This document shows positions 866 to 59,118 of a DNA stretch of 64,000 nucleotides, in pieces (position 1 is the first letter of the stretch; each line of letters opens with the position of its first letter). Where the stretch lies: NCBI RefSeq assembly GCF_003018255.1, contig NZ_CP027440.1. One strand, 5' to 3'. Made by a program: the position numbers and the translations under genes. The notes beneath the pieces are model-generated. The model had not been told where the DNA came from and made no database searches. It was given only the letters and a program-made list of their open reading frames with translations. Source of the stretch: Escherichia coli. GTDB lineage: Bacteria; Pseudomonadota; Gammaproteobacteria; Enterobacterales; Enterobacteriaceae.

Positions 866-1330
866 ATGGAAAAGAAATTACCCCGCATTAAAGCGCTGCT
901 AACCCCCGGCGAAGTGGCAAAACGCAGCGGTGTGGCGGTATCGGCGCTGCATTTCTATGAAAGCAAAGGGTTGATTAGCAGTATCCGTAATAGTGGCAAT
1001 CAGCGGCGATATAAACGTGATGTGTTGCGATATGTCGCAATCATCAAAATTGCTCAGCGTATTGGCATTCCGCTGGCGACCATTCGTGAAGCATTTGGCG
1101 TGTTGCCCGAAGGGCATACATTAAGTGCGAAAGAGTGGAAACAGCTTTCGTCCCAATGGCGAGAAGAGTTGGATCGGCGCATTCATACCTTAGTGGCGCT
1201 GCGTGACGAGCTGGACGGATGTATTGGTTGTGGCTGCCTTTCGCGCAGTGATTGCCCATTGCGTAACCCGGGCGACCGCTTAGGAGAAGAAGGCACAGGC
1301 GCACGCTTGCTGGAAGATGAACAAAACTAA
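866..1330 (+). CDS. soxR: SoxR redox-sensing MerR-family regulator ([2Fe-2S])
   Basis: 154-aa ORF; N-terminal MerR-type HTH and C-terminal [12 protein letters not shown] cysteine cluster. Confidence 0.95.
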
Positions 1331-1355
1331 AGCGCCACAAGGGCGCTTTAGTTTG
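1323..1355. terminator. Bidirectional rho-independent terminator at soxR 3' end
   Basis: Inverted repeat AAACTAAAGCGCC..GGCGCTTTAGTTT straddling the soxR stop, with T-runs on both strands. Confidence 0.6.
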
Positions 1356-1465
1356 TTTTCCGGTCTTTGTCTTTCTCTCTATCCCGCTGGTACACAGGAG
1401 GGTTTCCCCCGACGTCAACACACCTCATTCGAGCACGTGGTGGAGGTTCCGGTTGGTGTTGATGC
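1325..1465 (-). ncRNA. ryjA: Candidate small RNA RyjA (convergent with soxR)
   Basis: Positional inference only: K-12 has a ~140-nt sRNA on the opposite strand ending at the soxR terminator. No sequence-intrinsic proof; boundaries approximate. Confidence 0.3.
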
Positions 1466-7149: not shown

Positions 7150-7416
<267 letters not shown>

Positions 7417-17871: not shown

Positions 17872-18247
17872 GCCTGATGCGACGCTTACCGCGTCTTATC
17901 AGGCCTACGCCAGACTGCGCAATAGCTTGATTTAGGGTGATTTTGTAGGTCGGATAAGGCGTTTACGCCGCATCCGACATCAATATCTGATGCGACGCTT
18001 GCCGCGTCTTATCAGGCCTACGCCAGACTGCGCAATAGCTTGATTTAGGGTGATTTTGTAGGTCGGATAAGGCGTTTACGCCGCATCCGACATCAATATC
18101 TGATGCGACGCTTACCGCGTCTTATCAGGCCTACGCCAGACTGCGCAATAGCCTGATTTAGCGTGATTTTGTAGGTCGGATAAGGCGTTTACGCCGCATC
18201 CGACATCAATGCCTGATGCGACGCTTACCGCGTCTTATCAGGCCTAC
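17872..18247. repeat. BIME/REP array, three full units plus one partial, 113-bp period
   Basis: CTGATGCG motif recurs at 17874, 17987, 18100, 18213 (exact 113-bp spacing); units contain REP palindromes; fills the gltP-yjcO spacer. Confidence 0.85.
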
Positions 18248-18938: not shown

Positions 18939-18989
18939 TTTGATAATACGATTGGGTAGGGAGTAACCAGTATAAAGAGTTCGAATGGA

Positions 18990-19018
18990 TAAAAAAACAG
19001 CCTCCGAAAGGAGGCTGT
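18990..19018 (-). terminator. Rho-independent terminator downstream of fdhF
   Basis: Hairpin CAGCCTCC-GAAA-GGAGGCTG followed by a T-run on the minus strand. Confidence 0.6.
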
Positions 19019-19031
19019 AGAAAGGACTGTA

Positions 19032-21179
19032 TTACGCCAGTGCCGCTTCGCGCAGGCGAGTTTTCAACTTGTTGTACTCGTCAATCACGTACTGCTCGGC
19101 GGCGCGCTGATCGGCGATCGGCTCGACGCGCACGGCGCAGTATTTGTATTCCGGCGTTTTCGTAATCGGGCTTAAGTTTTCGGTCACCAGCTCGTTACAG
19201 GCACCAATCCACCACTGGTAGGTCATGTAAATCGCCCCTTTGTTCGGACGATCGCTGACCTGCGCACGGGTGATAATTTTGCCTTTACGCGAGTGCACCC
19301 AAACCAATGCCTCATCTTCAATACCCAGACGTTTGGCGTCTTCGGTATTGATTTGTGCGTAGCCAGGTTCATCAGCCAGCGCCGCCAGTGCCGCACAGTT
19401 ACCGGTCATCGAACGGCAAGAGTAGTGACCAACTTCACGCACCGTTGACAGTACCATCGGGTATTCGTCGGTGAGTTTGTCGATTGGCGCTACCCAGTCG
19501 CAGGTGAAGAACTGCGCCAGACCGTTCGGGGTATCAAACTTCTCTTTAAACAGATAAGAAGTCCCCTGATCGGCATCTGAAGTATCGCGGCAAGGCCACT
19601 GAATGAAGCCCAGTTCGCCCATTTTCTCGTAAGTCGCACCGTAGAAATCCGGGCACAGATGACGCAACTCGTCCCAGATCTCCTGGGTGTTGTTGTAGTG
19701 CATCGGATAACCCATACGAGTGGCAATTTCACTGATGATTTGCCAGTCCGTTTTCAGATCCCACTTCGGCTCAACCGCCTTGAAGAAACGCTGGAAGCCA
19801 CGGTCAGCCGCAGTAAACACGCCTTCATGCTCGCCCCACGACGTTGACGGTAAAATGACATCCGCCGCCGACGCGGTTTTGGTCATAAAGATGTCCTGAA
19901 CGATAACCAGTTCCAGATCTTCAAAGGCTTTACGTACTGCCGACAGTTCCGCGTCAGTTTGCAGCGGATCTTCGCCCATAATGTACGCCGCTCTCACTTC
20001 ACCATGCGCCACGCGGTGCGGCAGCTCGCTGATGCGATAGCCGGTATGAGCAGGCAGGCTTTCCACGCCCCAGGCTTTGGCGAATTTCTCGCGGTTAGCC
20101 GGATCTTTCACGTACTGATAGCCCGGATACGTATCCGGCAGCGCGCCCATATCGCAGGCACCCTGCACGTTGTTCTGACCACGAACCGGGTTTACACCCG
20201 CATGTGGCTTACCGAGGTTACCGGTCAGCATCGCGAGGCTGGTCAGAGAACGCACGGTTTCCACGCCCTGATAGAACTGGGTTACCCCCATGCCCCACAG
20301 GATGGCGGCGCTTTCTGCCTGGGCATACATCCGCGCCGCCTGACGAATCTCACTGGCGCTGACGCCGGTGATATCTTCAACCGACTCCGGCGTGTAGCCT
20401 TCAACGATTTTACGATACTCTTCAAAGCCTTCTGTACGGGAAGCGACGAACGCTTTGTCGTACAGATTTTCTTCAATAATGACATGGCCCATCGCATTCA
20501 ACAGCGCGATGTTCGAGCCGTTTTTCAATGCAATGTGCATGTCAGCAATGCGCGCGGTTTCAATTTTACGCGGATCGCAGACGATAATTTTCGCCCCGTT
20601 ACGTTTAGCGTTAATTACGTGATTCGCCACGATTGGGTGGGAATCCGCCGGGTTATACCCGAAAACGAACACTAAATCGGTATTATCAATTTCGTTAATA
20701 GCATTGCTCATTGCGCCATTACCGACCGATTGGTGCAGACCTGCAACCGATGGGCCGTGTCAGACACGAGCGCAGCAGTCAACGTTATTGGTACCAATAA
20801 CGGCGCGCGCAAATTTTTGCATTACATAGTTGGTTTCGTTACCCGTACCGCGCGAGGAGCCGGTCGTCTGGATGGCATCCGGACCGTACTTCTCTTTGAT
20901 GGCGCTCAGGCGCTCGGCAACGTAATTCAGTGCCTCATCCCAGGAAACAGGTTCGAGTTTGCCGCCACGCTGGCGACGGATCATGGGGGTTTTCAGGCGC
21001 GGGGTCAGGATCTGGGTATCGTTAATGAAGTCCCAGCCATAATAACCCTTCAGACACAGGGTACCCTGGTTGGTTTTCCCCTGCGCTGCCTCCGCCCGGA
21101 CGATTTTGCCGTTATCGACGACCAGGTTGATTTTGCAACCTGATGCGCAATAGGGGCAAACCGTGACGACTTTTTTCAT
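19032..21179 (-). CDS. fdhF: Formate dehydrogenase H, selenocysteine-containing (UGA recoded)
   Basis: 139-aa and 559-aa track ORFs are in frame across a single TGA at 20757..20759 (..CCARV-U-HGPSVAG..); total 715 codons; N-terminal CPYCASGC cluster. Confidence 0.92.
20715..20756 (-). other. SECIS hairpin immediately 3' of the fdhF UGA codon
   Basis: Sequence CACGGCCCATCGGTTGCAGGTCTGCACCAATCGGTCGG directly after the in-frame UGA can form the stem-loop expected for bacterial Sec insertion. Confidence 0.7.
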
Positions 21180-21230
21180 CGGTCTCGCTCCAGTTAATCA
21201 AATCACGCATACGCGCTCTCGACTACAGTA

Positions 21231-21246
21231 TGCATCTTTTATGCCA
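21231..21246 (-). promoter_or_regulatory. Sigma-54 (-24/-12) promoter of fdhF
   Basis: Minus-strand TGGCATAAAAGATGCA matches the TGGCAC-N5-TTGCA spacing (GG and GC 10 nt apart), ~50 bp upstream of the fdhF ATG. Confidence 0.6.
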
Positions 21247-21376
21247 CATTTTATTTGGGGTCATTCCCTGATATTACGGGCACTATTTATTCAAAACTCT
21301 GACGAAAAACAGGCTGTCGTCAGTTTTGACGTGACGAAACGAAATACCGCGTGACAGCCATCACGCGGTAGACATT

Positions 21377-22843
21377 TTATTTTTTCTCGACGATGGGAGC
21401 TGCCTGATACCCGCCGCCCAGCGATTTCATCAACTGAATGCTTTGGATCACCCGGCGGCTGTCCAGCATCAGTAATGACATCTCTTCGGCAAGCACTGGC
21501 AACCGGGCTTCGGTGGCCTGTAAGCGGCTGGTTAAGCCGCGCTGATAGGCGGCCTCGGCTGCGCGCTGGGCGAAGCGCGTTGCTTCCACGCGTTCCGCCT
21601 GCATCTCTCGCTCGTCGTTGAGGGTTTGCAGACGTGTGCCGTTGACGGCAATGTCACGCACCGCGTTCAATACTGACTGGTTGTAACGTTCAATCATCAT
21701 GTTGCTGGCGGTGCGAGTGCCTTCGAGATTGGCATTCAACCGTCCACCGTCAAACAGCGGCAATTTCAGACCCGGGATGAAGTTGAACTGGCGACTGGTT
21801 TTTTTGAATAAGGTATCCAGGTGGATGGAGTCCAGACCGAAAAACGCTTTGATATCAAAGCTCGGGTAGAACAGCGCCCGCGCGGAATCCACCTGATCTA
21901 ATGACGCCTGAACATACCAGCGCATGGCTTGCAGATCCGGGCGTCTGGCGAGCAACTCATAAGAGAGCGTTGCCGGAATGCCGGTCTGTACTCGTGGTAA
22001 TGCCACCGGTTTGATCTCCGGCATATCGCTGGCTCCCGCGCCAATCAATGCACGCAGAGATTCTCGCGTTTCAGTGATTTGCCCTTTGACGGCAGCAATT
22101 TGTTTATCGACCGCCAGAATCTGTGCCCGCGCGCCGTGGAAAGGCACTTGCGCTTCCAGACCGTGCGCCACTTTACTCTGGTGCGCTTTCACCGCGTAAT
22201 CAATCACATCGCGAGTTTGTTCTAACAGATCGAGCATCTGATAGCTGGCCTGCATACTGTAATAAAGCTGCGCTACGCCCGTGGTCAGCGATAGCTCTAC
22301 TGCTGCGGTTTCTGCCAGCGCGGCATTATGCGCGCCAATGGCGGCAGCAACCGCTGAGCGATGCACACCCCACAAATCGAGATCCAGTCCGGCAAACAAA
22401 CCGACTGTGGCTTCCGTATAGTACGGCCCGTCCATACCCAGTGCTGGCGCATCCATCGCATAAGGGCTTAAAAAGCCGTTCGCCGAGACGCGTTGGCGGT
22501 TGAGCATCCCTAACGCTGCGACCTGTAATTGTGAACCGGCATCTAACAAATCGGCCTGGGACTGCGCTTTTTCTTCCCGCAGTTTCGCTTCGGCGAGGGT
22601 GTGTGAACCACTTAGCGTCCGTTGGATCAGCGCATCCAGCTGCGGGTCATTGAGTTGTTTCCACCACTGCGCCTGCGGCCAGCCGGAGCTGGCAAGATGA
22701 ATATCATCGGCCAGTTTGATTTGTTCCGGTTTGAGCTGTTGATGAGGCGCAGAATCCTTACGTACCAGGGCACAGCCGGAAATCAGCGTCGTGCTGCCGA
22801 GAATGCTGCACAACAGCAGGCGTGAAAGTTGACGATTGATCAT
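21377..22843 (-). CDS. mdtP: Outer-membrane efflux lipoprotein (TolC-like OMF)
   Basis: 488-aa ORF with lipobox (LISGCA); overlaps the mdtO stop. Confidence 0.88.
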   Translation of the reverse strand: MINRQLSRLLLCSILGSTTLISGCALVRKDSAPHQQLKPEQIKLADDIHLASSGWPQAQWWKQLNDPQLDALIQRTLSGSHTLAEAKLREEKAQSQADLLDAGSQLQVAALGMLNRQRVSANGFLSPYAMDAPALGMDGPYYTEATVGLFAGLDLDLWGVHRSAVAAAIGAHNAALAETAAVELSLTTGVAQLYYSMQASYQMLDLLEQTRDVIDYAVKAHQSKVAHGLEAQVPFHGARAQILAVDKQIAAVKGQITETRESLRALIGAGASDMPEIKPVALPRVQTGIPATLSYELLARRPDLQAMRWYVQASLDQVDSARALFYPSFDIKAFFGLDSIHLDTLFKKTSRQFNFIPGLKLPLFDGGRLNANLEGTRTASNMMIERYNQSVLNAVRDIAVNGTRLQTLNDEREMQAERVEATRFAQRAAEAAYQRGLTSRLQATEARLPVLAEEMSLLMLDSRRVIQSIQLMKSLGGGYQAAPIVEKK

Positions 22844-24891
22844 TGCGTGGCTCCTTGTGCCTGTTCCGTGGCGGGCGTTAATGCCGGGGCTGTCCAGTCT
22901 GGCAAGCGGGCGAAAAGCTGGCAGACGTGTTGCTCCTGTTTTAATAAGGTCGGCAGGATGGCCTGCGAGGCGGGTGTTTCTTCAAGCGTTATTTGAGGAG
23001 AATGACTGAGTGCGGTAGCTACACCGGCGGCGTATTTCTCCAGGGCGTCGGCAAACTGACCTGCTCTGTCCGGCTGTAGTGCGTTATCCAGCGCCTGCGC
23101 CGAGTTCCAGGTAACATCCCAGGCGTGAAGAATATCGCGGCCCTGACGAATAACCGTTTGCGAACGTTCAATCAGTAATGCGCGTTCTTCGCTGTCCAGT
23201 TGACGCTCCAGCACCACGCGTTGGCACATCTCTTCACAGGCATTAAACGCCGCATGCAGACCTATGCGAATTTGCAGATAAGTGCGCAGAGCCGTGACTT
23301 CCTGCTGGCGTGGGATCCGCATTACTTTACTCAACATACCCAGCGCGCCAGCCAGTTTTTGCGGCAGCGTGCGCGCTTCGCTTTCAGGCCAGACAAAGGT
23401 GTAAATCACCGCCGACACCACGGTACCAATGATGATACCCAGAGCGCGATCGCGAATTTCCACCAGGTCGTACACCGGGCCAAAAACGTTTTCGAGCGTG
23501 GCGAGCGCGAAGGTGACCACCATCTGTGTGCCGATATAAGAAGAGCGTTCAGAGCTGGTGGCAATCCATGCGCCCAACAGGAAAATCGGTGCCAGCACAA
23601 ACAGCAATTCGACAATATTGTCCAGCCAGGGCATGACCAATAACGTGAATAACAGCGCCAGAATCGCGCCGCAAAAGGCCCCGCCAAAACGCAGCACCAT
23701 CTTCTGGTACGACGAACCGACATTGGGATTAGCGACGATCACGCAGGTCAGCATACAGGTGTGAATGCCTTCCCAGTCCACGCCGCTGTAGAAGGTGTAA
23801 CAGATCAAACAGGCGAGCAGCGTTTTTACCGCGTAGCGCATATAGTCTGGATTGGTAAAAGCGTCGGCGACCATTGATGGCGGTTTGGTGGCGGGCGTTG
23901 GCGGCGTATTCGGGTCCATCTGACCCAGTTGCAATAACGTCTGGCAGATATTCTCCAGGTTACATTCCCGTGCCGCCATCGCTTCACTTTCAGTGATCCG
24001 CCAGTCGCTTTGCCAGCACTGACCTTCGGCAATGGCATGCTGCAGCTTGTTGATTTCTGAGGCTAATTTTTGCCGAAATTCAATAATTGCCTGAGAATCA
24101 GCAAAAGAGGTGGGATCGTAGCGATTCAGCGTCGAGTAAATGTAGGTTACCGTTGCCACGCAGCTTTGCCACCATGCGCTCTGAGTTCGCCAGTTGGCAT
24201 CGTCCGCGAGGCAAAAGACATTGAGTTTTTGCAGCGCCAGCGCCTCTCTTTCAATCCGCGTTTCGGGTAGCGGTGCGAGGCTGTCCGTCAGGTGGCTAAT
24301 GGCATCATCAAGCCGATCATTAAGCGCCTGATGCATCTGCGTGATAGCGCGGCTGGGAAACCACAGCACGCCGATTAACGTCATCAGCAAGGTTGGATAG
24401 AGGCCGACAACGATACACCACAGGGTTAAGCGCACGACCACTTCCGGATAGTCGAGCATGGCGGGGAAGGTTTGCCCGTAAATAGCGACTATGGCGACGG
24501 CGAAAAAGACCAGCCCCAACCGATGGGTGCGCATCAAAAACATACAGCCCATCAGGATCGGTCCGGCGATGATCAATCGGATCAACGGTTCGCCGTATGA
24601 CCATTTGTAGATCAAAAACAGGCTGCCGATCTCCAGCACCGTGGCAACCACAAACAAGATCGCGACAAATTTGGTGTAAAACGCGTTCGACTGAATACCG
24701 TAAAACAGCACTGCCAGCGATAACGCCACAAAAGGGATCTCAAAGGTCATCGAGATCAGAATTACCAGCAGGCAGCCTACCCAGAGTTGCACGGTCTGCG
24801 GCACGCGACCTGGCCGCCGCTCGCTTAACTCTTCATGAAAGAACGCCAGCAGCCTGACCACCGGTAATGGCAGGGAGTTGAGCGCGCTCAT
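22840..24891 (-). CDS. mdtO: Inner-membrane efflux component (FUSC/PET family)
   Basis: 683-aa ORF with N- and C-terminal hydrophobic blocks; overlaps the mdtN stop. Confidence 0.88.
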   Translation of the reverse strand: MSALNSLPLPVVRLLAFFHEELSERRPGRVPQTVQLWVGCLLVILISMTFEIPFVALSLAVLFYGIQSNAFYTKFVAILFVVATVLEIGSLFLIYKWSYGEPLIRLIIAGPILMGCMFLMRTHRLGLVFFAVAIVAIYGQTFPAMLDYPEVVVRLTLWCIVVGLYPTLLMTLIGVLWFPSRAITQMHQALNDRLDDAISHLTDSLAPLPETRIEREALALQKLNVFCLADDANWRTQSAWWQSCVATVTYIYSTLNRYDPTSFADSQAIIEFRQKLASEINKLQHAIAEGQCWQSDWRITESEAMAARECNLENICQTLLQLGQMDPNTPPTPATKPPSMVADAFTNPDYMRYAVKTLLACLICYTFYSGVDWEGIHTCMLTCVIVANPNVGSSYQKMVLRFGGAFCGAILALLFTLLVMPWLDNIVELLFVLAPIFLLGAWIATSSERSSYIGTQMVVTFALATLENVFGPVYDLVEIRDRALGIIIGTVVSAVIYTFVWPESEARTLPQKLAGALGMLSKVMRIPRQQEVTALRTYLQIRIGLHAAFNACEEMCQRVVLERQLDSEERALLIERSQTVIRQGRDILHAWDVTWNSAQALDNALQPDRAGQFADALEKYAAGVATALSHSPQITLEETPASQAILPTLLKQEQHVCQLFARLPDWTAPALTPATEQAQGATQ

Positions 24892-38912: not shown

Positions 38913-39589
38913 GAAGAGACTCCCATTGGGTGCAGGCGGTCGGCGACGTCATTGCGTACGGCTTCGTCATGGAAGATACCGACGATGGCCGCGCCACGGG
39001 CTTTGGCTTCGCGAATTAATTCCACCACCGCGGCGCTGTTTTTAGCGTCCAGCGAGGCGGTGGGTTCATCCAGCAGCAGAATCGGATAGTCGACGATAAA
39101 GCCACGGGCGATGTTGACGCGCTGCTGTTCGCCGCCGGAGAAGGTCGATGGTGCCAGGTGCCACAGGCGTTCAGGCACGTTCAGGCGCGTCAGTAATCGG
39201 GCGGCTTTAGCGGCGCAGGCTTCACGCGGTACGCCGGTATCGAGCAGAGGCTGCATCACCACTTCCAGTGCCGAAATACGCGGGATGACGCGCAGAAACT
39301 GGCTCACCCAGCCGATGGTGGTTTTGCGGATCTCCACCACTTTGCGGGCTGGCGCGGTGACCAGGTCTACCCATTCCTCACCGTGTTTGATCTGGATTTG
39401 CCCTTCGTCGGGCAGATAGTTGGCGTACAGCGAGCGCAGCAGGGTTGATTTTCCGCTGCCGGAGTGGCCGTGAAGCACCACGCATTCGCCTGCGTTGACG
39501 GTGAGCGAGGCACGTTGTAAGACGGGCAGGCGCACGCCGTTTTGCTGATGCAGGATGAAGGTTTTACTGACGTTTTGTACGTTAATCAT
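38909..39589 (-). CDS. phnL: C-P lyase ABC-ATPase-like subunit
   Basis: 226 codons from MINVQNVSK; Walker [10 protein letters not shown]. The track ORF extends upstream into the REP spacer. Confidence 0.88.
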
Positions 39590-39610
39590 TTTTCGCCTCG
39601 TGGTTCGGGT

Positions 39611-39697
<87 letters not shown>

Positions 39698-39699
39698 GC

Positions 39700-40458
39700 T
39701 CAATTCTGCAAAACCGATGACACCAGCAGTTGTGTATACGGATGGTGCGGGTCGTCGAGCACGCGGTCGGTTAACCCACTCTCCACCACTTTCCCTTGCT
39801 TCATTACCAGCAAACGGTCCGCCAGCAGACGGGCGACGCCTAAATCGTGGGTGACAATCACTACCGCCAGGTTAAGCTCCATCACCAGACCGCGGAGCAG
39901 GTCCAGCAGGCGCGCCTGTACCGACACATCCAGCCCGCCAGTGGGTTCATCCATAAACACCAGCTTCGGATGCGTCACCAGGTTGCGGGCAATCTGCAAA
40001 CGTTGCTGCATGCCGCCGGAAAAGGTGGTCGGCAGGTCGTCGATCCGGTTGGCGGGAATCTCCACCTCTTCCAGCCATTTCTGCGCGGTGGCGCGAATAT
40101 CGCCGTAATGACGCGCTCCGGTTGCCATCAACCGTTCGCCGATATTGCCGCCTGCCGACACCTGGCGGCGCAGGCCGTCAAGCGGATGCTGATGCACCAC
40201 ACCCCATTCGGTGCGCAGCAGGCGACGGCGGTCGGCCTCGCTCATCGCGTACAGCGAACGGTTCTCGTAGCGAATTTCCCCTTGCTGTGGTGTCAGGCGG
40301 GCGGAAATTGATTTCAGTAGCGTGGTCTTCCCGGAACCGGACTCCCCAACAATGCCCAGAACTTCTCCCGGCCATAAATCAAAAGAGACATCGCTAAAGC
40401 CTTTGCCCGGCGCGTAAAGGTGGGTCAGGTTATTGACCGAAAGTAACGGTTGATTCAT
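39700..40458 (-). CDS. phnK: C-P lyase ABC-ATPase-like subunit
   Basis: 252 codons from [11 protein letters not shown]; Walker [10 protein letters not shown]. Confidence 0.9.
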
Positions 40459-41300
40459 TGGTTTTTTGCCTCGCTCTGTTGGCGGCAATAATCGGTATCG
40501 GAGCAGACAAACATGCGGTTTCCGGCGTCATCCAGCACCACTTCATCAAGATAGCTGTGGGTCGATCCGCAGATGGCGCACGGCTCATTCCACTGCTGAA
40601 CGGTGAACGGGTGATCGTCGAAATCGAGGCTTTCCACGCGGGTAAACGGCGGCACCGCATAGATGCGCTTCTCGCGCCCCGCGCCGAACAGTTGCAGGGC
40701 GGGCATCATGTTCATTTTCGGGTTATCAAATTTCGGGATCGGCGACGGGTCCATTACGTAGCGCCCGTTTACCTTCACCGGATAGGCGTAGGTGGTGGCG
40801 ATATGACCGAAGCGGGCGATATCTTCATACAGCTTCACCTGCATCACGCCGTACTCCTCCAGCGCGTGCATGGTGCGGGTTTCCGTTTCGCGCGGCTCGA
40901 TAAAGCGCAGCGGTTCGGGGATCGGCACCTGGAAAATAATGATCTGATCTTCGGTCAGCGGCGTTTCGGGGATGCGGTGGCGCGTCTGGATAAGCGTCGC
41001 ATCGTCCGTACGTTCAGTGGTGTTTACCCCGGTCACGCGCTTAAAGAAGTTACGGATCGACACCGCGTTGGTGGTGTCGTCCGCGCCCTGGTCAATCACC
41101 TTCAGCACATCGCTTTCGCCAATCACGCTGGCGGTAAGCTGTATGCCGCCGGTTCCCCAGCCGTAGGGCATCGGCATCTCGCGCCCGCCAAACGGCACCT
41201 GATAACCGGGGATCGCCACCGCTTTTAAGATGGCGCGGCGGATCATGCGTTTGGTCTGCTCGTCGAGGTAGGCAAAGTTGTAGCCGCTCAGATTAGCCAT
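40455..41300 (-). CDS. phnJ: C-P lyase catalytic subunit (radical SAM-like)
   Basis: 281 codons from MANLSGYNF; C-terminal cysteine cluster CAICGS..CSDTDYC. Confidence 0.9.
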   Translation of the reverse strand: MANLSGYNFAYLDEQTKRMIRRAILKAVAIPGYQVPFGGREMPMPYGWGTGGIQLTASVIGESDVLKVIDQGADDTTNAVSIRNFFKRVTGVNTTERTDDATLIQTRHRIPETPLTEDQIIIFQVPIPEPLRFIEPRETETRTMHALEEYGVMQVKLYEDIARFGHIATTYAYPVKVNGRYVMDPSPIPKFDNPKMNMMPALQLFGAGREKRIYAVPPFTRVESLDFDDHPFTVQQWNEPCAICGSTHSYLDEVVLDDAGNRMFVCSDTDYCRQQSEAKNQ

Positions 41301-42357
41301 GGTTCTGCTCCTGTTGCAGACGTTTGAGTAGCTCCAGTTCGGCCTGGAAATCGACGTAGTGCGGGAGTTTAAGGTGCGAGACAAAGCCTGCGGCTTCGAC
41401 GTTGTCGGCATGCGCCAGCACGAACTCTTCATCCTGCGCCGGGCCTGTCGCGTGCTCGCCGTACTCCGGGGCTTGTAGAGCGCGGTCAACCAGCGCCATC
41501 GCCATCGCTTTGCGCTCGCTCATGCCGAACACCAGCCCGTAGCCGCGCGTGAAGTGCGGCGGCTCATCCGGCGGGTCGATAAAACCGTTGACCATTTCAC
41601 ATTCGGTCATCAGCAGTTCGCCGACGTTCACCGCAAATCCCAGCTCTTCCGGCACAATCGACACGTCGATATAGCCGCTGCGGATTTCGCCTGCGAACGG
41701 ATGATTGCGTCCGTAACCACGCTGGGTGGAGTAGGCCAGCGCCAGCAAATAGCCTTCGTCGCCGCGCATTAATTGTTGCAGGCGGGAGGAGCGTGAGCAG
41801 GGGTAAACCGGCGGCGTGCGGGTGATGTCGTCCGGCTGTGCGCCGCTATCTTCTTCAAACTTCGCCAGCCCCTGACGCGCCAGCAGGCTGAAAACGTGCG
41901 GCGACGGCTGTTGTTCGCTGTCGGCTGTGGTCAGCGTCGGCGCTTCGCCGTTTGCCAGCAGGGTGAAATCGAGCAGGCGATGGGTGTAGTCGTAGGTTGG
42001 GCCAAGCAGCTGGCCGCCGGGAATGTCTTTATAAACCGCCGAAATACGGCGTTCGAGCCGCATCTCCGTGGTGTCGAGCGGCTCGCTCACCGCCAGCTTT
42101 GCCAGCGTCGTGCGGTAGGCGCGCAACAGGAAAATCGCTTCAACGTTATCGCCGCTGGCCTGTTTCAGCGCCAGTGCCGCCAGCTCACGGTCGGCAATGC
42201 CGCCTTCGGTCATCACGCGATCTACCGCGAGGTTAAGCTGCTGTTCAATCTGGGCGACGCTCAGTTCGGGTAAATCGGTATCGCCCCGGCGTCGGCTCTC
42301 TTGCAGGGCGTGGGCGGCGTCGATCGCCTTCTCGCCCCCTTTCACGGCAACGTACAT
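41293..42357 (-). CDS. phnI: C-P lyase core complex subunit
   Basis: 354 codons from [13 protein letters not shown]. Confidence 0.9.
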   Translation of the reverse strand: MYVAVKGGEKAIDAAHALQESRRRGDTDLPELSVAQIEQQLNLAVDRVMTEGGIADRELAALALKQASGDNVEAIFLLRAYRTTLAKLAVSEPLDTTEMRLERRISAVYKDIPGGQLLGPTYDYTHRLLDFTLLANGEAPTLTTADSEQQPSPHVFSLLARQGLAKFEEDSGAQPDDITRTPPVYPCSRSSRLQQLMRGDEGYLLALAYSTQRGYGRNHPFAGEIRSGYIDVSIVPEELGFAVNVGELLMTECEMVNGFIDPPDEPPHFTRGYGLVFGMSERKAMAMALVDRALQAPEYGEHATGPAQDEEFVLAHADNVEAAGFVSHLKLPHYVDFQAELELLKRLQQEQNHG

Positions 42358-42941
42358 CAGCACACCTCCACATGAGTGGTTCGCGGGATAGCCAGCAGGC
42401 GCTCGCCGCAGGTCAGGATCAGGTCGATGCCGAGCGGGAACGGGTGCGGGCGCTCGGTAAGTTCGTGCAGAATGCACTCTGGCAGCTGCGGGGCGATCAT
42501 TCGTTCTTCGGCAATACCCGCGCCAGTAAGGCGCAGCATGCGCCCGCCGCTCAGGCTGACGACCTGTAAAATCAGCGTCGCGCCCGCTTCTGGCGCAACA
42601 GCGGTGCCGCTGGAAAGGGCGTTAAGCTGTTCGCTGGAAATCGCCTCATCCGTTACCGCGAAGGTCGCCAGTTCCGGCTGATTGACCAGCGGCGCGTTGG
42701 TATGAAAACGCAGGCTCTGGCTGACGATATCGTTACTTAATGGCGCAGAAAGCCACACCGGCGTGTCGTTATCGGCCAGCGTCAGCAGCACGCTGGTGGT
42801 GGCGATATTCAGCGGCTGCCAGCCGCGTTTGAGCTGATGCAGGGCGACAATCACGCCCGGCTCGCTCATGGCTTTTAACAGGCGACGAAAACTGTGCTGG
42901 GCATCCTGCACGGGAAGCATAAAAGCGGTTTCCAGGGTCAT
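42357..42941 (-). CDS. phnH: C-P lyase core complex subunit
   Basis: 194-aa ORF. Confidence 0.9.
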
Positions 42942-43390
42942 GCGTTATCTCCGCGAACCATCGTAAAGAAGTCGACCCGGCTGGCGTTTACTTCGGCCTG
43001 GCGTGCGGCAATGCGTGCCATACGGTCAGCGTTCAGCGGGGCAATAAGAGTTTCTGATAAGTTTTGAAAATGGCGGGTTTGCTGCATCAGCGCGTCAATC
43101 AGCGCGCAGCGTTCGGCGTGCTGTTTGTCGCGCCCCAGCACCCAGCTGTAGCCGAGCGTGCCGTCAGTCAGGCGTACGGCGGCGCGGGTGAGCGTGGCGT
43201 CGCCAGCAAAAAAGCGTTCGCCGGTGCCACCCATCCGCGCCTGAATCTGCACCAGGCCGGTTTCAGCGGCGCGGATTACTTCATAGTCGGCAGTGATGTT
43301 CAGCGCCTTCAGGCGGGCTGCCAGTTCAGCCGGTTGGCTGTGTGCCAGTATGGACATCCAGTGCTGGCGGGTCGCGGTATCTGCGTGCAT
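42938..43390 (-). CDS. phnG: C-P lyase core complex subunit
   Basis: 150-aa ORF. Confidence 0.9.
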
Positions 43391-44116
43391 TCAGTGCTCC
43401 ATAGTGAATTCAATCATGTCGGCGCGCGTCAGGCTGACGGAGTACTCCGCCGGGCTGCTTTCACCGTCACGGTGGTTAAGGGTGCGCACGCACAGCAGCG
43501 GCGACATATTCGGGATTTCAAGACGCTGGCACTCTTTGGCCTGGGCGCGGCGGGCGCTGATCCGCGTCTGGCTGCGGCGCAGCGCAATCCCCGTTTGCTC
43601 GCGCAGAAAATCGTGCAGCGAGCCGCTGTCGAAGCGTTGCAGCGTCGGCCAGAGGGTGAGGTCCGCAAAGTAGTGGTCGATTAAACAGAGCGCGACGCCG
43701 TTGACCCGGCGCAGGGTGCGCAGGTGGATAACGTTCTCGCCCTCGGTTATCCCCAGCGCGTCAGCGACGTGACCGGAGGCCGGGCGCAGCACAGACAGCA
43801 GTTTTTCGCTGGTGGGATGGCTGCCCTGATCCAGCAGGTTCTGGCTAAAACGCGCCTGGGCGTTGAGCGGGTAATCGAACGGGCGCATCAGCACCAGCAC
43901 GCCGACGCCCTGACGGCGCTGTACCCAGCCTTTTTCCACCAGTTGGTCGATGGCGCGGCGCAGGGTGTGGCGGTTCACCTCAAAGCGCGCCGCCAGTTGC
44001 TGCTCGGCGGGAAGATAGTCGCCGCAGCGGTAGTGTTGACGAAGCTCCTGCTCAAGTTTTGCGGCTATCTCCTGATAGCGTGTTGGGTAGCTGGTCGGAT
44101 GTGTAGACAAGTGCAT
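43391..44116 (-). CDS. phnF: GntR-family repressor of the phn operon
   Basis: ~241-aa ORF with N-terminal HTH and UTRA-type C-terminus. Confidence 0.88.
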   Translation of the reverse strand: MHLSTHPTSYPTRYQEIAAKLEQELRQHYRCGDYLPAEQQLAARFEVNRHTLRRAIDQLVEKGWVQRRQGVGVLVLMRPFDYPLNAQARFSQNLLDQGSHPTSEKLLSVLRPASGHVADALGITEGENVIHLRTLRRVNGVALCLIDHYFADLTLWPTLQRFDSGSLHDFLREQTGIALRRSQTRISARRAQAKECQRLEIPNMSPLLCVRTLNHRDGESSPAEYSVSLTRADMIEFTMEH

Positions 44117-44136
44117 AGATATCAATGCCTCGCTTA

Positions 44137-44916
44137 TCAGATAAAGTGCTTACGCAACCGTTGAGAGAGGAAATCCAGCAGGCTGACCGTGACGATAATC
44201 AGCACCATCAGGGCGCAGGTTTGCTGGAACTGGAAACCGCGAATCGCTTCCCACAGGGTGACGCCGATCCCGCCCGCGCCGACCATGCCAACAACGGTGG
44301 CCGAACGGACGTTGGATTCGAAGCGATAGAGGGAGTAGGAGATCAGCAGCGGCATCACCTGCGGCAGCACGCCGTAGAGGATCTCTTCGAGCTTGTTGGC
44401 ACCAGTGGCGCGAATACCTTCCACCGGGCCGGGTTCAATTGCTTCTACCGCTTCGGAAAGCAGTTTGGAGAGCACGCCGGTGGTGTGGATAAACAGCGCC
44501 AGTACGCCAGCGAACGGACCGAGACCGACGGCGACCACGAACAGCATGGCGAAGACCATCTCGTTAATGGCGCGGCAGGCGTCCATCAGGCGGCGAACGG
44601 GCTGATACACCCACCACGGCACCAGGTTTTCAGCGCTCATCAGGCCGAAGGGGATGGAGAGAACGACTGCCAGCGCGGTGCCCCAGACGGCGATTTGCAG
44701 CGTGACGGCCATTTCGGTGAGGTAATCCTGCCATTGGCTGAAATCGGGCGGGAAGAAGTCGGCGGCGAAGGTTGCCATGTTGCCGCCGTCTTTGATCAGC
44801 GTAAGCGGGGCCATTTCCGCGCCCTGCCACGAGACGACCAACACGGCGAGAACAATGGCCCAGCTCAGAAGCGAGAACCAGCTGCGCTTGGGTGGGGCGA
44901 TGGTGATGGTTTGCAT
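44137..44916 (-). CDS. phnE: Phosphonate ABC transporter permease (intact allele)
   Basis: Single continuous ORF (259 aa from MQTITIAPP; 280 aa from an upstream in-frame start), with no frameshift. Confidence 0.85.
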
Positions 44917-44931
44917 GTTTGGCTCCGGTCT

Positions 44932-45018
44932 GTAGGCCGGATAAGGTGCTTGCACCGCATCCGGCATCAACGTCTGCACATTGTCGGATGCGACGCCGGG
45001 GCGTCTTATCCGACCTAC
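44932..45018. repeat. REP pair inside the phn operon (phnD-phnE spacer)
   Basis: GTAGGCCGGATAAGGTGCTTGCACCGCATCCGGCA and GTCGGATGCGACGCCGGGGCGTCTTATCCGACCTAC. Confidence 0.8.
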
Positions 45019-45021
45019 GAT

Positions 45022-46038
45022 TTACTGCACCGCTTTACTCACCGAACTCATCGCGCTTAACGCGTTGTTCAGGCGGTCCAGGTCATCCAGTTGCGCCTGA
45101 ATGGCGCTGGTTTTTGCCAGCTTGTCCTGCTCATTCAGCCCTTTATTGCCTTTCACGCCCTGCATCTCTTTAAACAGCGCGAGCTGGCGAATCGGCACCA
45201 GTTGCAGGTCGCTGGAGGCGCGGAACGGGGCCCAGCCCAGGCGTTCCAGCACCGCTTTCTCTTCCGGCGTTTTGCCGTAGTTCATAAAGAAGTCGTAGAT
45301 CTTGTCTTTGGTGGTTTCGGACAGATTTTTGCGCCAGACGATCGGATCGCCTGGGATCAGCGGCGATTTCCAGATCACCTTCAGTTCTTTGAGCTTCTCC
45401 GGTGCGGAGGTTTTCAGCTTGTCGAGGTTTTCGGTGTTGTTGGTCGCCACATCCACCTGTTTGTTGGCGACGGCCAGCGCGTTGGTTTCATGCCCGGCGT
45501 TGACGGTGCGCTTGAAGTCGCTGGCGGAGATATTGTTTTTGGCGAAGACGTAGTAGCCGGGGACGAGGAAGCCAGAGGTGGAGTTAGGATCGCCATTGCC
45601 AAAGGTGAGATCTTTACGCTTCGCCAGCAGATCGTTCAGGTTGTTGATCGGACTGTCTTTGTTGACGATCAACACGCTCCAGTAACCTGGCGATCCATCC
45701 GCCGCGACCGTCTGGGCGAAGACCTGACCGTTGGCGCGATCCACCGCTTCCATCGCCGACAGATTGCCGTACCAGGCGATATCCACTTTGTTGAAGCGCA
45801 TTCCCTGGATAATGCCCGCGTAGTCCGGGGCAAAGAAGGCGTTGACCTTTACGCCCAGCTTCTTCTCCATATCCTGTAAGAACGGCGTCCATTGCGGTTT
45901 CAGGTTTTGCTGTGATTCCGTTGAAATAATGCCGAAATTCAGCGCCTTTTCCTGCTCTTCGGCGTGCGCCGGGCTTAACAGGGTGCTGAGGCTGAACATG
46001 CTGGTGAAGGCCAGCGAGGCAATTATCTTAGCGTTCAT
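45022..46038 (-). CDS. phnD: Periplasmic phosphonate-binding protein
   Basis: 338-aa ORF with signal peptide. Confidence 0.9.
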   Translation of the reverse strand: MNAKIIASLAFTSMFSLSTLLSPAHAEEQEKALNFGIISTESQQNLKPQWTPFLQDMEKKLGVKVNAFFAPDYAGIIQGMRFNKVDIAWYGNLSAMEAVDRANGQVFAQTVAADGSPGYWSVLIVNKDSPINNLNDLLAKRKDLTFGNGDPNSTSGFLVPGYYVFAKNNISASDFKRTVNAGHETNALAVANKQVDVATNNTENLDKLKTSAPEKLKELKVIWKSPLIPGDPIVWRKNLSETTKDKIYDFFMNYGKTPEEKAVLERLGWAPFRASSDLQLVPIRQLALFKEMQGVKGNKGLNEQDKLAKTSAIQAQLDDLDRLNNALSAMSSVSKAVQ

Positions 46039-46062
46039 TCGTTTTCCTCAATGATGGGGATG

Positions 46063-46851
46063 TCAGGCAGCTTTCGCGTTCTCTTCAATGCGATTAATGC
46101 TGCGGTAGAGATGGTCAAAACGTTCGTTATCAAACAGTTGGCTGCTGCCGTCGTAAAAGACGTGCCCCTGACGCAGGGCGACGATGCGTTCGCAGTAGCG
46201 CAGGGCGTAATCCACCTGATGTAGCGTGACGACCACGGTGATGCCGTCGTTCTGGTTGATGTCGCGCAGGGTGTCCATCACGATGCGCGCCGATTCCGGG
46301 TCCAGCGAGGCGATGGGTTCGTCCGCCAGAATCACCTTCGCCTGCTGCATCAGCGCGCGGGCAATCGCCACACGCTGTTGCTGTCCGCCGGAGAGGGTGG
46401 AAACGCGCTGATGGGCAAAGTGCACCATGCCAACGCGGGTCAGCGCCTGTAACGCGCGCTGTTTCTGCTCGCGGGTGAAGTAGCTAAAACAGGTGCGCCA
46501 GAATGGCGTGCTGCCGAGCGCGCCAATCAGCACGTTCTCCAGTACGCTCAGGCGATTCACCAGGTTGAATTGTTGGAAGATGTAGCCGGTATTGGCGCGG
46601 CTTTTGCGGATATCGCGGGCCAGGCGGCCTTCGCGCTGGACTGTGCGGCCCAGCAGCTCGATATGGCTACCGGCAGATTTATCGCCGGTAATCAAACCGC
46701 TTAAGTGACGTAAAAGGGTGGATTTGCCGGAACCCGACGGCCCAAGCAGAGCCACCATTTCACCGTGATGAATGTTCAGATCAACCGCGTGCAGCGCCTG
46801 ATGCTGATTGAAGGTTTTGGCGAGCTTCTCGACACGGATAATCGTTTGCAT
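46063..46851 (-). CDS. phnC: Phosphonate ABC transporter ATPase
   Basis: 262-aa ORF with Walker [10 protein letters not shown] and LSGGQQQR signature. Confidence 0.92.
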
Positions 46852-46889
46852 GATGCAGCCTCCCTAAAAAAGTGGCTCCATCGTGGCGG

Positions 46890-46930
46890 ATTATTGTGAC
46901 GATTTTGTTAACTAAAAGTGACTAACGGAT
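46890..46930 (-). promoter_or_regulatory. Pho box (PhoB site) of the phnC promoter
   Basis: Minus-strand CGTTAGTCACTTTTAGTTAACAAAATCGTCACAAT, ~45-80 bp upstream of phnC; resembles the CTGTCAT-type pho box. Confidence 0.55.
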
Positions 46931-46983
46931 GAAGAGTTAACGAGATTTCGATGACAGTGCGGGAGGGCGGCCCTCCCGGCGGG

Positions 46984-47427
46984 TTAGTGCGTTGGTTGTT
47001 GTTTGACGACATTAATCATCCACGGTACGCCAAATTTATCGGTGACTTTGCCGAAGCCATGCGCCCAGAAAGTTTCCTGCCAGGCCATTTCGATTTTTCC
47101 GTTAGCTGCAAGGTTATCAAACCAGCGTTTTCCTTCTTCGACCTGTTGCGAATCGAGCACTAGCGTAAAGCCGGAGTAGCTGGCTTTTCCTGACGGTATA
47201 GCATCGCTCATCATGATGTCGCTTCCTGCAATGCGCACGTTGGCATGAGCGATGGCGGTATCGGGAAATTGCATTCCGGAAGGGCAGTTCTCGGCGCTGT
47301 CCTGCGCTGATTTCGGCATTTCGCCGAAGCTGATTTTATAGAGCAGTTCCGCGCCCAACGTACGTTGATAATAGGCAATCGCGTCGGAACAGTTACCGGC
47401 AAAAGAGAGGTAGGGACTTAACGGCAT
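46984..47427 (-). CDS. yjdN: VOC/glyoxalase-like protein
   Basis: 147-aa ORF; position matches yjdN (phnB). Confidence 0.8.
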   Translation of the reverse strand: MPLSPYLSFAGNCSDAIAYYQRTLGAELLYKISFGEMPKSAQDSAENCPSGMQFPDTAIAHANVRIAGSDIMMSDAIPSGKASYSGFTLVLDSQQVEEGKRWFDNLAANGKIEMAWQETFWAHGFGKVTDKFGVPWMINVVKQQPTH

Positions 47428-47471: not shown

Positions 47472-47580
<109 letters not shown>

Positions 47581-53193: not shown

Positions 53194-53243
53194 GCTGAAA
53201 CGGATGGCCTGATGTGACGCTGTCTTATCAGGCCAATTGAACT

Positions 53244-53260
53244 CTTAAGGTTCACTTAAT
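53244..53260 (+). promoter_or_regulatory. BasR/PmrA box upstream of pmrR
   Basis: CTTAAG-GTTCA-CTTAAT, ~45 bp upstream of the pmrR ATG. Confidence 0.6.
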
Positions 53261-53304
53261 CTCTGACGCGCATACTCTCCTCCAGGTTAACGGAGGAGAG
53301 TGCA

Positions 53305-53394
53305 ATGAAAAACCGTGTTTATGAAAGTTTAACTACCGTGTTCAGCGTGCTGGTGGTCAGCAGCTTTCTTTATATCTGGTTTGCCACGTTCTGA
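53305..53394 (+). CDS. pmrR: PmrR small membrane peptide (29 aa)
   Basis: ATG preceded by GGAGGAG RBS; encodes MKNRVYESLTTVFSVLVVSSFLYIWFATF. Below the ORF-track length cut-off; overlaps basS 3' end antisense. Confidence 0.7.
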   Translation: MKNRVYESLTTVFSVLVVSSFLYIWFATF

Positions 53395-54470
53395 TCTTTC
53401 TTCAGCCGTACCCAGGCCCGCGTGCCGGAAGTCTCTTGCCGGTTTTGCAGGAAAAACTGCCCGTGATGCAACTGTGTAATGCGGCTGACAATACTTAACC
53501 CCAGACCAATCCCGCCATAACGGCTGTCCATACGTACAAACGCTTTACTCAACTCCCCGCATTTACTCTCATCAATACCCGGTCCTTCATCTTCAACGGC
53601 CATGACCGCTCCGCCATCTTCTTGCAGCTTAATCATAATGTTGCTGCCTTGCGGGCTGTAACGATGGGCGTTTTCTACCAGGTTTCGCAATAACATCCGC
53701 AGCAGGGTTGCATCACCCTGAACGGTGATGTCGGCGGCGCTCTCTGGCAATAGCAGGTTTTGCTGTCGCTGGTCGAGCATGGTACTGAGTTCGTCATACG
53801 AGGGGAGAATGACATCTTCCAGCAGTTTTACATGTTGATAATTACCGGAAGAAAATGACTGTCCGGCACGCGCCAGTTGCAGCAGCTGGGAGACACTCTC
53901 CATCATCTGATCAAGTCGAGCCACTAACGGTGCTACATCAATGTGATGCGTTTTCGCCAGCAGTTCCAGATGCAAACGCACCCCCGCCAGTGGCGTTCGC
54001 AGTTCGTGCGCGACGTCAGCGGTAAACAACCTTTCGTTATCCAGCGTGCTGGTCAGGCGACTGACCAGATCGTTCAACGCCGAAACCACCGCTTCGATTT
54101 CGAGGGTGGCGCTGTGAATGGCAATAGGCGTTAAGTTGTCGGCGGTGCGCGCTTCCAGCTCTTTTTGCAGCTCCGCCAGCGGCCGGGTGATGCGGCGTAC
54201 CGCCTGATAGCAGATAAATAGCGTCAGGCTGACCATAAAGACGCCGGGGACGATCAGGCTGGCGACCGCCTCGCGGATCTCACGCATGATGTGGCGATCG
54301 TTGTTGCGATTGTCGCGTAGCGCCTGCTCAAACAGCTGAATCTGCTCGGTACTTTCATGCCATAGCCAGAAGACGCTGATCAGCTCAAACACCAACAAAA
54401 TGGCCCCAATGGTCAATATCAGCCGTTGGCGCAGCGATATTGGTCGGCGCAGAAAACGCATCAGATTCAA
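53370..54470 (-). CDS. basS: Sensor histidine kinase BasS/PmrB
   Basis: ~363-aa ORF with H-box ADVAHELRTPL; exact start uncertain. Confidence 0.9.
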   Translation of the reverse strand: MNLMRFLRRPISLRQRLILTIGAILLVFELISVFWLWHESTEQIQLFEQALRDNRNNDRHIMREIREAVASLIVPGVFMVSLTLFICYQAVRRITRPLAELQKELEARTADNLTPIAIHSATLEIEAVVSALNDLVSRLTSTLDNERLFTADVAHELRTPLAGVRLHLELLAKTHHIDVAPLVARLDQMMESVSQLLQLARAGQSFSSGNYQHVKLLEDVILPSYDELSTMLDQRQQNLLLPESAADITVQGDATLLRMLLRNLVENAHRYSPQGSNIMIKLQEDGGAVMAVEDEGPGIDESKCGELSKAFVRMDSRYGGIGLGLSIVSRITQLHHGQFFLQNRQETSGTRAWVRLKKDQNVANQI

Positions 54471-56882: not shown

Positions 56883-58220
56883 TTAATCTTTGCTTATTGG
56901 TGCATCTAAGGGATACGGGTTTTTATGCAGCCGGTTGTAATTCAGCGCATACATGGCGGTGATTACCATCAGAGTGACAAATGACCACATAACCTCTTTC
57001 GCGCCGGACCCTACCACGGCCCAGATGCAGTAGAGGAAGGCAATGGTAGTCACTGCCAGGTATGCCGGGCGTGCTTTACCAAAGTGACCGTGGCCGAGCA
57101 GTAGTAACGCCGCACAGGTGTAAAGATATGGCACCAGTGTAAAGATGACCGACACGGAAGAAACCAGACCGAATTCTTTGGTCGCGTTTGGCGAAATGCT
57201 ACTGAGCTGGAAGATGGTCATCAAAATACCGACGATAATCAGCCCCGCCACTGGCGTGCCCGCTTTATTAACACGGGCAAAAATCGGTGGGAACAGTCCG
57301 TCATCGGCAGCGGCTTTCGCCGTTTGACCCGCCAGCAACGTCCAGCCGCCCAGTGAACCTAAGCAACCCGCAGCTGCGCAGAAGGAAACAATGGCCCCGG
57401 CGGTGTCACCCAACGCCATCCGTGCGGCATCACCGAATGGCGAAGCAGAAACGCGCAGTGCGGCATTAGGGATCATCCCCATAATCGCGGTGGTAGAAAG
57501 TACATAGCAAACGGCAGCAATCAATACCCCGCCAATGGTGGCGATAGGGACGTTGCGTTTCGGGTTTTTCACCACACCTGCGGCAACGGAGGCACTTTCC
57601 ACACCGATGAACGACCACAGCGTAACGTTAAGGGTACTTTGAATCGCACCGAAGGTGCCCAGACCGCTGACGTTCCATGCCGCCATATAGGTTTCACCAC
57701 GGAACCAGAACCAGCCAAATACGGCAATCCCGACGATGGGGATCAGCGCCAGCACGGTAGCAACGGCCTGTACGCGGGTGATCATTTTCGGACCGACAAT
57801 GTTCAGCAGGACGAAGATCCACAGCACCACGACGCAGGTGATGGTTAATACCAATGGGTCTTTCAGAATCGGGAAGAAGTAACTTAAATATCCTACGCCA
57901 ATGACCACCATGGCGATATTGCCGATCCAGCAGGCCAGCCAGTAGAGGACGTTGGTTTGATAACCGAGAAACGGGCCAAAGCAGCGGCGGGCGTAAGCGT
58001 AAGAACCACCAGGACTTGGGTCGAGGAACGACATTTTGGCGTATACCATCGAGAGCCCCAGCGCACCGATAATCGTCACCAACCATCCATAAATGGCAAT
58101 CCCGCCAGTGGAGGCCAGGTTTGCAGGTAACAGAAAAACACCTGACCCCATAATATTCCCCGACACCATCAGGGTGACGGGGATTAAGCCCACTTTGTGA
58201 GCATCAGCATCCGAAGACAT
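56883..58220 (-). CDS. adiC: Arginine:agmatine antiporter (APC family)
   Basis: 445-aa 12-TM ORF. Confidence 0.92.
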
Positions 58221-58356
58221 AATTAAACTCCTGCGAAGGCGAGCTTCGTGACAATAAATTACGTCGTATCATACGCCTGCATTCGATAGTTGAATTATTA
58301 TCGGCCGGGTTATCGCTGATGCCGTTATTAATATAGCTCTTCGTTAAGGTTAAAAA

Positions 58357-59118
58357 TCAGGCGACAGTGCGTTCTCTGTGCTGACTAACATAATGCAGCG
58401 GCGTCATACCGTAGAAGTCTTTAAAGACAGAAATAAAGTACGACGTACTGTTGTAGCCGCAGGACTGTGATACCTGAGAGATATTTTTACCGTCCATCAT
58501 TAATTCATTTACGGCATAGCGCATGCGGCAGGTGGTGATTATTTGGCTATAACTGGTGTTTTCGCTTTTCAGCTTTTTCTTTAACAGACTTGGGCTAAGA
58601 CATAAACAACTGGCTACCATACTAAGATTCCAGTCTTTGTGGATATCGCTTTCAATAATTTGATAAACGCTGTCACTTACACAATTACGTAACATATACA
58701 TCATTAGTGAAAGGAATTTTTTACTGTCGAGAAAACGGGATAGCACAGTGAATAATAATGCACGTGTTCGTTCCTTTTCTGACTCAGTTTCAGCGGGCAT
58801 CATGCTATGTTGCGCGGCAACGCGAAAGACGTCTGGCGTCAGGCATGGAAGGGTGAGGATGGGCGTAGCGCTACGTTGCCATACTGGTATTTGCGAGAGA
58901 TCTTTATTCAGAAACCGGAGGTAATCTTTGATGATGTCGTGACTAATATGAGCAACCAAAGTGTTATTAAGAGAGGAGACGTCGATAATATTATTTTCAC
59001 AATTTAATAACGCCATATGGTTAGCTTTAAGGCTAATAGGTTCTTTCCCATTCACCCTTATCCAGACATCTTTTTCAGTCAATAAAACAATACAAGGTTG
59101 GTCGCTGCAAATCCTCAT
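58357..59118 (-). CDS. adiY: AraC-family regulator AdiY
   Basis: 253-aa ORF with C-terminal AraC-type HTH; AT-rich coding and flanks. Confidence 0.88.
   Translation of the reverse strand: MRICSDQPCIVLLTEKDVWIRVNGKEPISLKANHMALLNCENNIIDVSSLNNTLVAHISHDIIKDYLRFLNKDLSQIPVWQRSATPILTLPCLTPDVFRVAAQHSMMPAETESEKERTRALLFTVLSRFLDSKKFLSLMMYMLRNCVSDSVYQIIESDIHKDWNLSMVASCLCLSPSLLKKKLKSENTSYSQIITTCRMRYAVNELMMDGKNISQVSQSCGYNSTSYFISVFKDFYGMTPLHYVSQHRERTVA

Follow-up and report, generated by a model that had tools for sequence, protein, structure and literature searches.

A selenocysteine UGA codon and its SECIS element in the fdhF gene of Escherichia coli

The locus described here is almost certainly the Escherichia coli fdhF gene, encoding the Mo/Se formate dehydrogenase H (FDH-H) of the formate-hydrogen lyase complex, with a UGA at codon 140 and a SelB-dependent SECIS element. 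fdhF ranks as the founding case of selenocysteine recoding in bacteria. The selenocysteine codon and the SECIS are real, and the interpretation given in a first-pass annotation of the same DNA is supported with small corrections; both features are already fully known. The evidence comes from the reading frame, from the match of the RNA to a covariance model, and from a comparison of homologues that have either TGA or a cysteine codon at the active site.

The gene and its internal stop codon

fdhF lies on the minus strand of the window, by which we mean the whole 64-kb stretch of DNA that was analysed, and the coordinates of its features are collected in Table 1. Translated, the CDS is a single frame of 716 codons that is interrupted by one TGA and yields 715 residues. 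The mechanical ORF list divides this frame into two pieces, of which the second begins at Met-157; the 16 codons between them (141-156) are in the same frame and contain no stop. The product around the internal stop reads ..NNVDCCARV*HGPSVAGLHQSVGNGAMSNA.., and the corresponding minus-strand DNA is GAC TGC TGC GCT CGT GTC TGA CAC GGC CCA TCG GTT GCA GGT CTG CAC CAA TCG GTC GGT AAT GGC GCA ATG. The first-pass annotation had proposed that one in-frame TGA splits fdhF into ORFs of 139 and 559 aa, as we find, but it placed the TGA at 20757..20759 (-). Those bases are CAC, the codon for His-141 that follows the TGA, and the proposed coordinate is thus 3 bases, or one codon, off. That the translation is continuous across the TGA (CCARV-U-HGPSVAG) was confirmed.

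Table 1. Coordinates of fdhF and associated features (positions in the window unless a locus pair is given)
Feature	Location	Strand	Remarks
fdhF CDS, formate dehydrogenase H	19032..21179	(-)	715 aa including Sec-140, plus terminal stop
139-aa ORF	20760..21179	(-)	mechanical ORF list; same frame as the 559-aa ORF
559-aa ORF	19032..20711	(-)	mechanical ORF list
UGA codon 140, read as selenocysteine	20762..20760	(-)	aligned with X140 of FDH-H crystal sequences; TGA kept in relatives
Full SECIS, Rfam SECIS_2 (RF01988)	20713..20767	(-)	spans the UGA, beginning 5 nt ahead of it
Spacer from UGA to hairpin	20759..20749	(-)	11 nt; hairpin begins at 20748
Minimal upper hairpin GGUUGCAGGUCUGCACC, SelB-binding part	20732..20748	(-)	fold (((.(((....))))))
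GGUC loop	20741..20738	(-)	G23/U24 = 20740/20739, both unpaired
Shine-Dalgarno GGAG	21188..21191	(-)	8 nt before ATG at 21179..21177; direct sequence reading
Candidate sigma-54 -24/-12 promoter element TGGCATAAAAGATGCA	21231..21246	(-)	about 50 nt upstream of ATG
Sec/Cys fdhF pairs	L011/L012, L014/L015, L055/L056, L046/L047, L120/L121 and others		homologue scan, among the matches listed

With a Cys placeholder at position 140, the protein shows the Pfam domains PF04879 (Molybdop_Fe4S4, residues 1-54), PF00384 (Molybdopterin, 61-487), and PF01568 (Molydop_binding, 576-682), all far over the cut-offs, and their N-to-C order fits a molybdopterin formate dehydrogenase. Judged by its sequence, FdhF belongs to the Mo-bis-PGD (DMSO reductase) superfamily. 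The joined residues 1-715 align end to end with E. coli FDH-H in the PDB entries 1AA6, 1FDO, 1FDI, 2IV2, and 7Z0T. The alignment with 1AA6_A scores 1665 bits, with 712 of the 715 residues matching; two of the three mismatches to the PDB chains are the substitutions K289E and A390V, and the third is at position 140, with the Cys placeholder in our query and X in the structure. This nonstandard residue X falls exactly on TGA codon 140. Sec-140, His-141, Arg-333, Cys-8, Cys-11, Cys-15, and Cys-42 are all found at the expected positions in the translation; we take the first three to be catalytic and the four cysteines to be cluster ligands in FDH-H.

Over its 2148 nt, the gene has 100% DNA identity with the fdhF CDS annotated in several complete E. 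coli genomes, and of the 5426 complete genomes of this species, 5419 contain fdhF. The order gltP-yjcO-fdhF-mdtPON, with mdtP upstream and yjcO downstream of fdhF, is the usual one for E. coli. E. coli K-12 fdhF (SECIS RF01988; FDH-H) occupies the same locus, with the same neighbors. Compared with the crystallized K-12 protein, the window's product has two substitutions, and relative to other E. coli alleles the gene shows about 1.2-1.8% synonymous divergence. The complete DNA identity, the alignment with X140, and the canonical SECIS bear out the earlier assignment of this gene as fdhF with a selenocysteine UGA.

It had also been predicted that standard gene callers would mark the gene as a pseudogene. 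This did not hold, as NCBI PGAP/RefSeq gives one intact 2148-nt CDS, with no pseudogene flag, in all six of the complete genomes inspected. The split of fdhF is restricted to naive stop-to-stop ORF finders. Three of the six genomes have 'selenocysteine-containing' in the RefSeq product name; the remaining three have 'formate dehydrogenase subunit alpha' with no such addition. In NZ_LR890405.1 and NZ_CP080155.1 (L006 and L007), the fdhF product is labeled 'formate dehydrogenase N subunit alpha, selenocysteine-containing', which is a product-name error, because FDH-N is encoded by fdnG.

Two strains differ in the organization of the locus. E. coli Ec-U18 (L010, 3001-3843) has a genuine fdhF pseudogene; a deletion has cut the gene short after about 840 nt and has taken with it yjcO and the last part of gltP. 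In STEC299, whose fdhF allele is identical to that of the window, a cluster of five ABC transporter genes separates fdhF from yjcO (L001, 8149-13703). The window and the genome of strain JNE23-011 are without this cluster, and in the window yjcO follows 93 bp after fdhF (spacer at 18939-19031).

The putative -24/-12 element upstream of the gene has two mismatches to TGGCAC-N5-TTGCW. In a scan of the whole window, the sigma-54 consensus was not enriched, with 36 occurrences found against 45 expected. We take fdhF to be sigma-54/FhlA dependent. Given this lack of enrichment, the designation of TGGCATAAAAGATGCA as the candidate fdhF promoter relies on its position and on this presumed FhlA dependence.

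Structure of the SECIS element

The RNA on the 3' side of the TGA had been proposed to form a hairpin, to be examined by folding and by comparison with the SECIS consensus. Minimum free energy (MFE) folds of 20720..20762 and 20713..20767 confirmed the hairpin. In a search of the whole window, the Rfam SECIS_2 model, with a gathering score of 70, matched the fdhF element at 87.1 bits (full model, 1-55/55; E = 1.8e-17), and this was the sole SECIS match in the 64 kb. All 55 positions agree with the consensus; the sole non-exact pair, 2/54, is U-G compared with the consensus c-g, which is compatible. The MFE structure of the 55 nt coincides with the one that Rfam gives as consensus, and the comparison thus came out in favor of the proposed element.

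The upper hairpin has the form GGU-U-GCA [GGUC] UGC-ACC, both in the fold and in the Rfam alignment. One U of the doublet U20746/U20745 is unpaired, and it is 20745 in the MFE fold and in the Rfam consensus; the bulged U named U17 in the literature is presumably 20746. The minimal SECIS was reportedly defined by Liu et al. in 1998 as a 17-nt hairpin 11 nt past the UGA, and the fdhF hairpin has this length and this distance. Bacterial SECIS elements share three conserved traits that SelB binding requires (PMC8704476): a stem-loop directly after the UGA, a U bulged out of the stem, and adjacent unpaired G and U bases in the loop. The fdhF element has all three, with its stem-loop inside the CDS. 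The published layout of fdhF is UGA140 followed by a SECIS that encodes residues 141-153 (PMC4513850).

The folding energy of the hairpin is not exceptional compared with dinucleotide shuffles; stretches of 51, 43, and 55 nt have z-scores of -0.52, -1.28, and -1.23, respectively. Furthermore, the mean folding energies of the homologues described below, among the matches listed, are -19.5 kcal/mol for those with TGA (Sec-type) and -19.4 kcal/mol for those with TGC or TGT (Cys-type), p = 0.56. The first-pass annotation had named the lack of a stable hairpin as one result that would count against a SECIS. A hairpin is indeed present, but its stability is a poor discriminator, since the Cys-type genes fold equally stably. 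We therefore dropped hairpin thermodynamics as evidence for the SECIS. A SECIS is recognized by its particular loop, bulge, and spacing, not by its stability, and the signal beyond chance in the fdhF hairpin is the covariance-model match, not the energy.

We also looked at covariation in 32 distinct Sec-type elements. Standard pairs make up 90.8% of the pair cells, vs 23-49% when the partners are slid, and one stem pair switches from G-C to U-A in 6 of the 32 elements. Changes on both sides were found in just 2 of 20 pairs, a number that 237 of 500 shuffles reach, and the mean column identity is 92%. The covariation signal is small because the element is nearly invariant. Covariation is consistent with the structure but weak, and as structural proof it was set aside as largely uninformative.

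Selenocysteine and cysteine homologues

The motif CARV[TGA/TGC/TGT]HGP was used to scan for homologues, with one genome per species. At least 120 stretches were obtained, of which 119 had enough flank to analyse. Among the matches listed, 113 of these 119 proved to be genuine homologues; 51 of them have TGA at the active site, and the other 62 have TGC or TGT. The Cys-type homologues and paralogues (CARVCHGPSVAGL...), from Enterobacterales and other bacteria, have the enzyme family and the active-site peptide in common with fdhF. They differ from it in having TGC or TGT instead of TGA, in lacking AGGTCT, in their free use of synonymous codons, and in giving no Rfam SECIS match at the six loci tested.

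AGGTCT, which spans the loop, is found at one fixed offset in 50 of the 51 TGA genes and in none of the 62 TGC/TGT genes among the matches listed. The genes that encode HGPSVAGL allow a comparison at constant peptide sequence, again among the matches listed. In the Sec-type genes (n = 47), Ala-Gly-Leu is always GCA GGT CTG, with a third-position entropy of 0.00 bits, whereas the Cys-type genes (n = 49) use 4, 4, and 5 codons for Ala, Gly, and Leu, with entropies of 1.69, 1.89, and 0.97 bits. The synonymous entropy of the Sec-type genes among these matches is 1.11 bits outside the element, 0.53 bits in codons +1 to +16, and 0.18 bits in the apical codons +5 to +8. The Cys-type genes show no dip in the same regions (1.24, 1.57, and 1.66 bits). 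The Sec-type genes come from a narrower range of lineages than the Cys-type genes, which could inflate the contrast between the two sets, although this comparison within genes addresses the effect of relatedness. The pattern of codon use shows purifying selection on the RNA beyond the coding constraint, limited to those of the listed homologues that bear UGA.

The Rfam SECIS_2 model detects, at threshold, the Sec-type loci of Enterobacter and Morganella, and it matched none of the six Cys-type loci tested. Sec-type elements that are more distant, from Haemophilus, Budvicia, and a Coriobacteriales MAG, escape it, and its range is thus narrow. The Sec-type fdhF genes of the Pasteurellaceae (Haemophilus, Actinobacillus, and Aggregatibacter) have the UGA codon and the GGUC offset as in the gene described here, with 575-577 codons open downstream. 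Their element differs from that of E. coli in a re-paired upper stem (GUAGCAGGUCUGCUC), with a compensatory change from G-C to U-A. Of seven such loci, L013, L036, L053, and L080 have this stem and L054, L088, and L096 have GUAACAGGUCUGCUC, all with the GGUC offset kept. The sole Pasteurellaceae locus tested with the model, L013 from Haemophilus, scores under the gathering score, and SECIS_2 probably under-detects the elements of this family.

The TGA itself has to be considered as a true nonsense mutation, with fdhF a pseudogene in this strain. A stop-to-stop ORF list does give two fragments, and real fdhF pseudogenes occur in E. coli, such as the deletion-truncated copy in Ec-U18. However, the TGA stands at the position of the selenocysteine in the crystallized wild-type enzyme, it is kept at codon 140 in all five of the diverged E. 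coli alleles examined, and it is also at codon 140 in 51 other species among the matches listed. Past the TGA, about 575 codons are open in most of those other species, again among the matches listed. Compared with the window, the five E. coli alleles differ downstream of the UGA in 24-34 codons, of which just 2-3 are nonsynonymous, and there are no differences in codons 139-157. These substitutions show purifying selection at the protein level downstream of the UGA. The open downstream frame and the mostly synonymous change rule out that fdhF is a pseudogene or two genes, and a SECIS comes after the TGA; we regard the chance of a nonsense mutation as vanishingly small.

Alternatively, the UGA could be read by near-cognate suppression, or the two ORFs could give separate polypeptides, with the hairpin an accident of the conserved active-site peptide. 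The folding energies, which are no better than those of shuffled sequences, fit this reading, and since HGPSVAGL is also conserved in the Cys-type enzymes, coding alone predicts some conservation of nucleotides. It does not predict that, for an identical peptide, the Cys-type genes have 4-5 codons for each of Ala, Gly, and Leu and the Sec-type genes have one, nor that synonymous variation dips just in the 16 codons past the UGA, and just in the UGA genes, both among the matches listed. Nor would an accidental hairpin be recognized by the Rfam model in Sec-type loci and in none of the six Cys-type loci. The solved structures are single 715-residue chains, which speaks against two polypeptides. 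An accidental hairpin with suppression or separate products is thus highly improbable, and we retain selenocysteine insertion directed by the SECIS, which none of our observations contradicts.

Among the matches listed, many Enterobacterales genomes have both a Sec-type fdhF, with TGA and SECIS, and a Cys-type paralogue, with TGC or TGT and no SECIS. The fdhF locus in the E. coli window has the Sec form only. Pairs of Sec and Cys isoenzymes that are selenium dependent have been described in Treponema primitia (PMC3892789), and the Enterobacterales pairing resembles them. It is conceivable, as a mild possibility, that the two forms in other Enterobacterales serve as a backup system for selenium availability.

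Recoding and genomic setting

In the mechanism that we envisage, the mRNA from +4 to about +43 relative to the UGA, inside the CDS, folds into the bacterial SECIS hairpin. SelB, with GTP and Sec-tRNA(Sec), would be expected from established knowledge to bind the apical hairpin by contacting the bulged U and, in the GGUC loop, the bases G23 and U24. Tethered 11 nt from the UGA, SelB would deliver selenocysteine at the UGA in the A site, in competition with RF2, and the ribosomes that do not recode would terminate and release the 139-aa fragment. For fdhF, SelB binding and selenium-dependent read-through have been published, with a fragment encoding residues 130-179, and the recoding efficiency is about 30-40% (PMC4513850). 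On the strength of this established knowledge, we infer SelB binding, selenium dependence, and recoding of about 30-40% at this locus as well.

A tRNA search found no tRNA, hence no selC, within the 64-kb window, and none of selA, selB, selC, and selD lies within it. In K-12, the sel genes are elsewhere on the chromosome. When 5426 complete E. coli genomes were searched with the K-12 genes as queries, 5425 had selA-selB, 5424 had selC, and 5425 had selD. From these counts, it is highly probable that the sel genes are present in the source strain.

What of the lower part of the SECIS, made up of the lower stem and of the helix between nt 51-55 and the 5 nt ahead of the UGA? In the 32 sequences, pairing in the outer helix amounts to 98.8%. 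In codons +11 to +15, the synonymous entropy is 0.33-0.98 bits in Sec-type genes vs 0.88-1.59 bits in Cys-type genes, among the matches listed. Mutational work is said to describe just the upper 17-nt hairpin as necessary. Selection on the lower part in its own right seems unlikely; if it were true, this part might have a second role, for example, in shielding the UGA from RF2 or in timing the refolding of the SECIS between ribosomes.

The whole window is colinear with JNE23-011, its closest complete genome, with 99.5% identity and 314 mismatches. The mismatches cluster at 19000-24000 (fdhF-mdtP-mdtO), 39000-47000 (the phn operon), and 57000-64000 (adiC to melA), and outside these three blocks there are 0-2 mismatches per kb. 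The fdhF allele is 100% identical to that of STEC299 and other strains, unlike that of JNE23-011. In sequence terms, the window looks like an ordinary recombination mosaic.

Several other RNA features were seen in the window. An Rfam 'sRNA' match to STnc630 at 53236-53401 (+), with 178.5 bits, encloses the 29-codon pmrR ORF (about 53306-53395, from the colinear genome), and the transcript listed as an 'sRNA' is apparently mRNA for a small protein. The Hfq-binding sRNA sraL is at 1323-1463 (-), with 153 bits; it is convergent to soxR (866-1330, +) and overlaps the 3' end of soxR by a few bases. There are eight naRNA4 (REP/BIME-type) matches, at 7160-7412, 17948-18244, 44935-45015, and 47492-47569. 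Among them are two arrays in which three copies stand in tandem, and one of these arrays is in the gltP-yjcO spacer near fdhF.

The practical value of the fdhF case is as a positive control, in which a recoded stop codon can be recognized from the sequence alone. Hairpin stability tests poorly for a SECIS; the loop, the bulge, and the spacing, together with the freezing of codons in Sec-type compared with Cys-type genes, are good tests.
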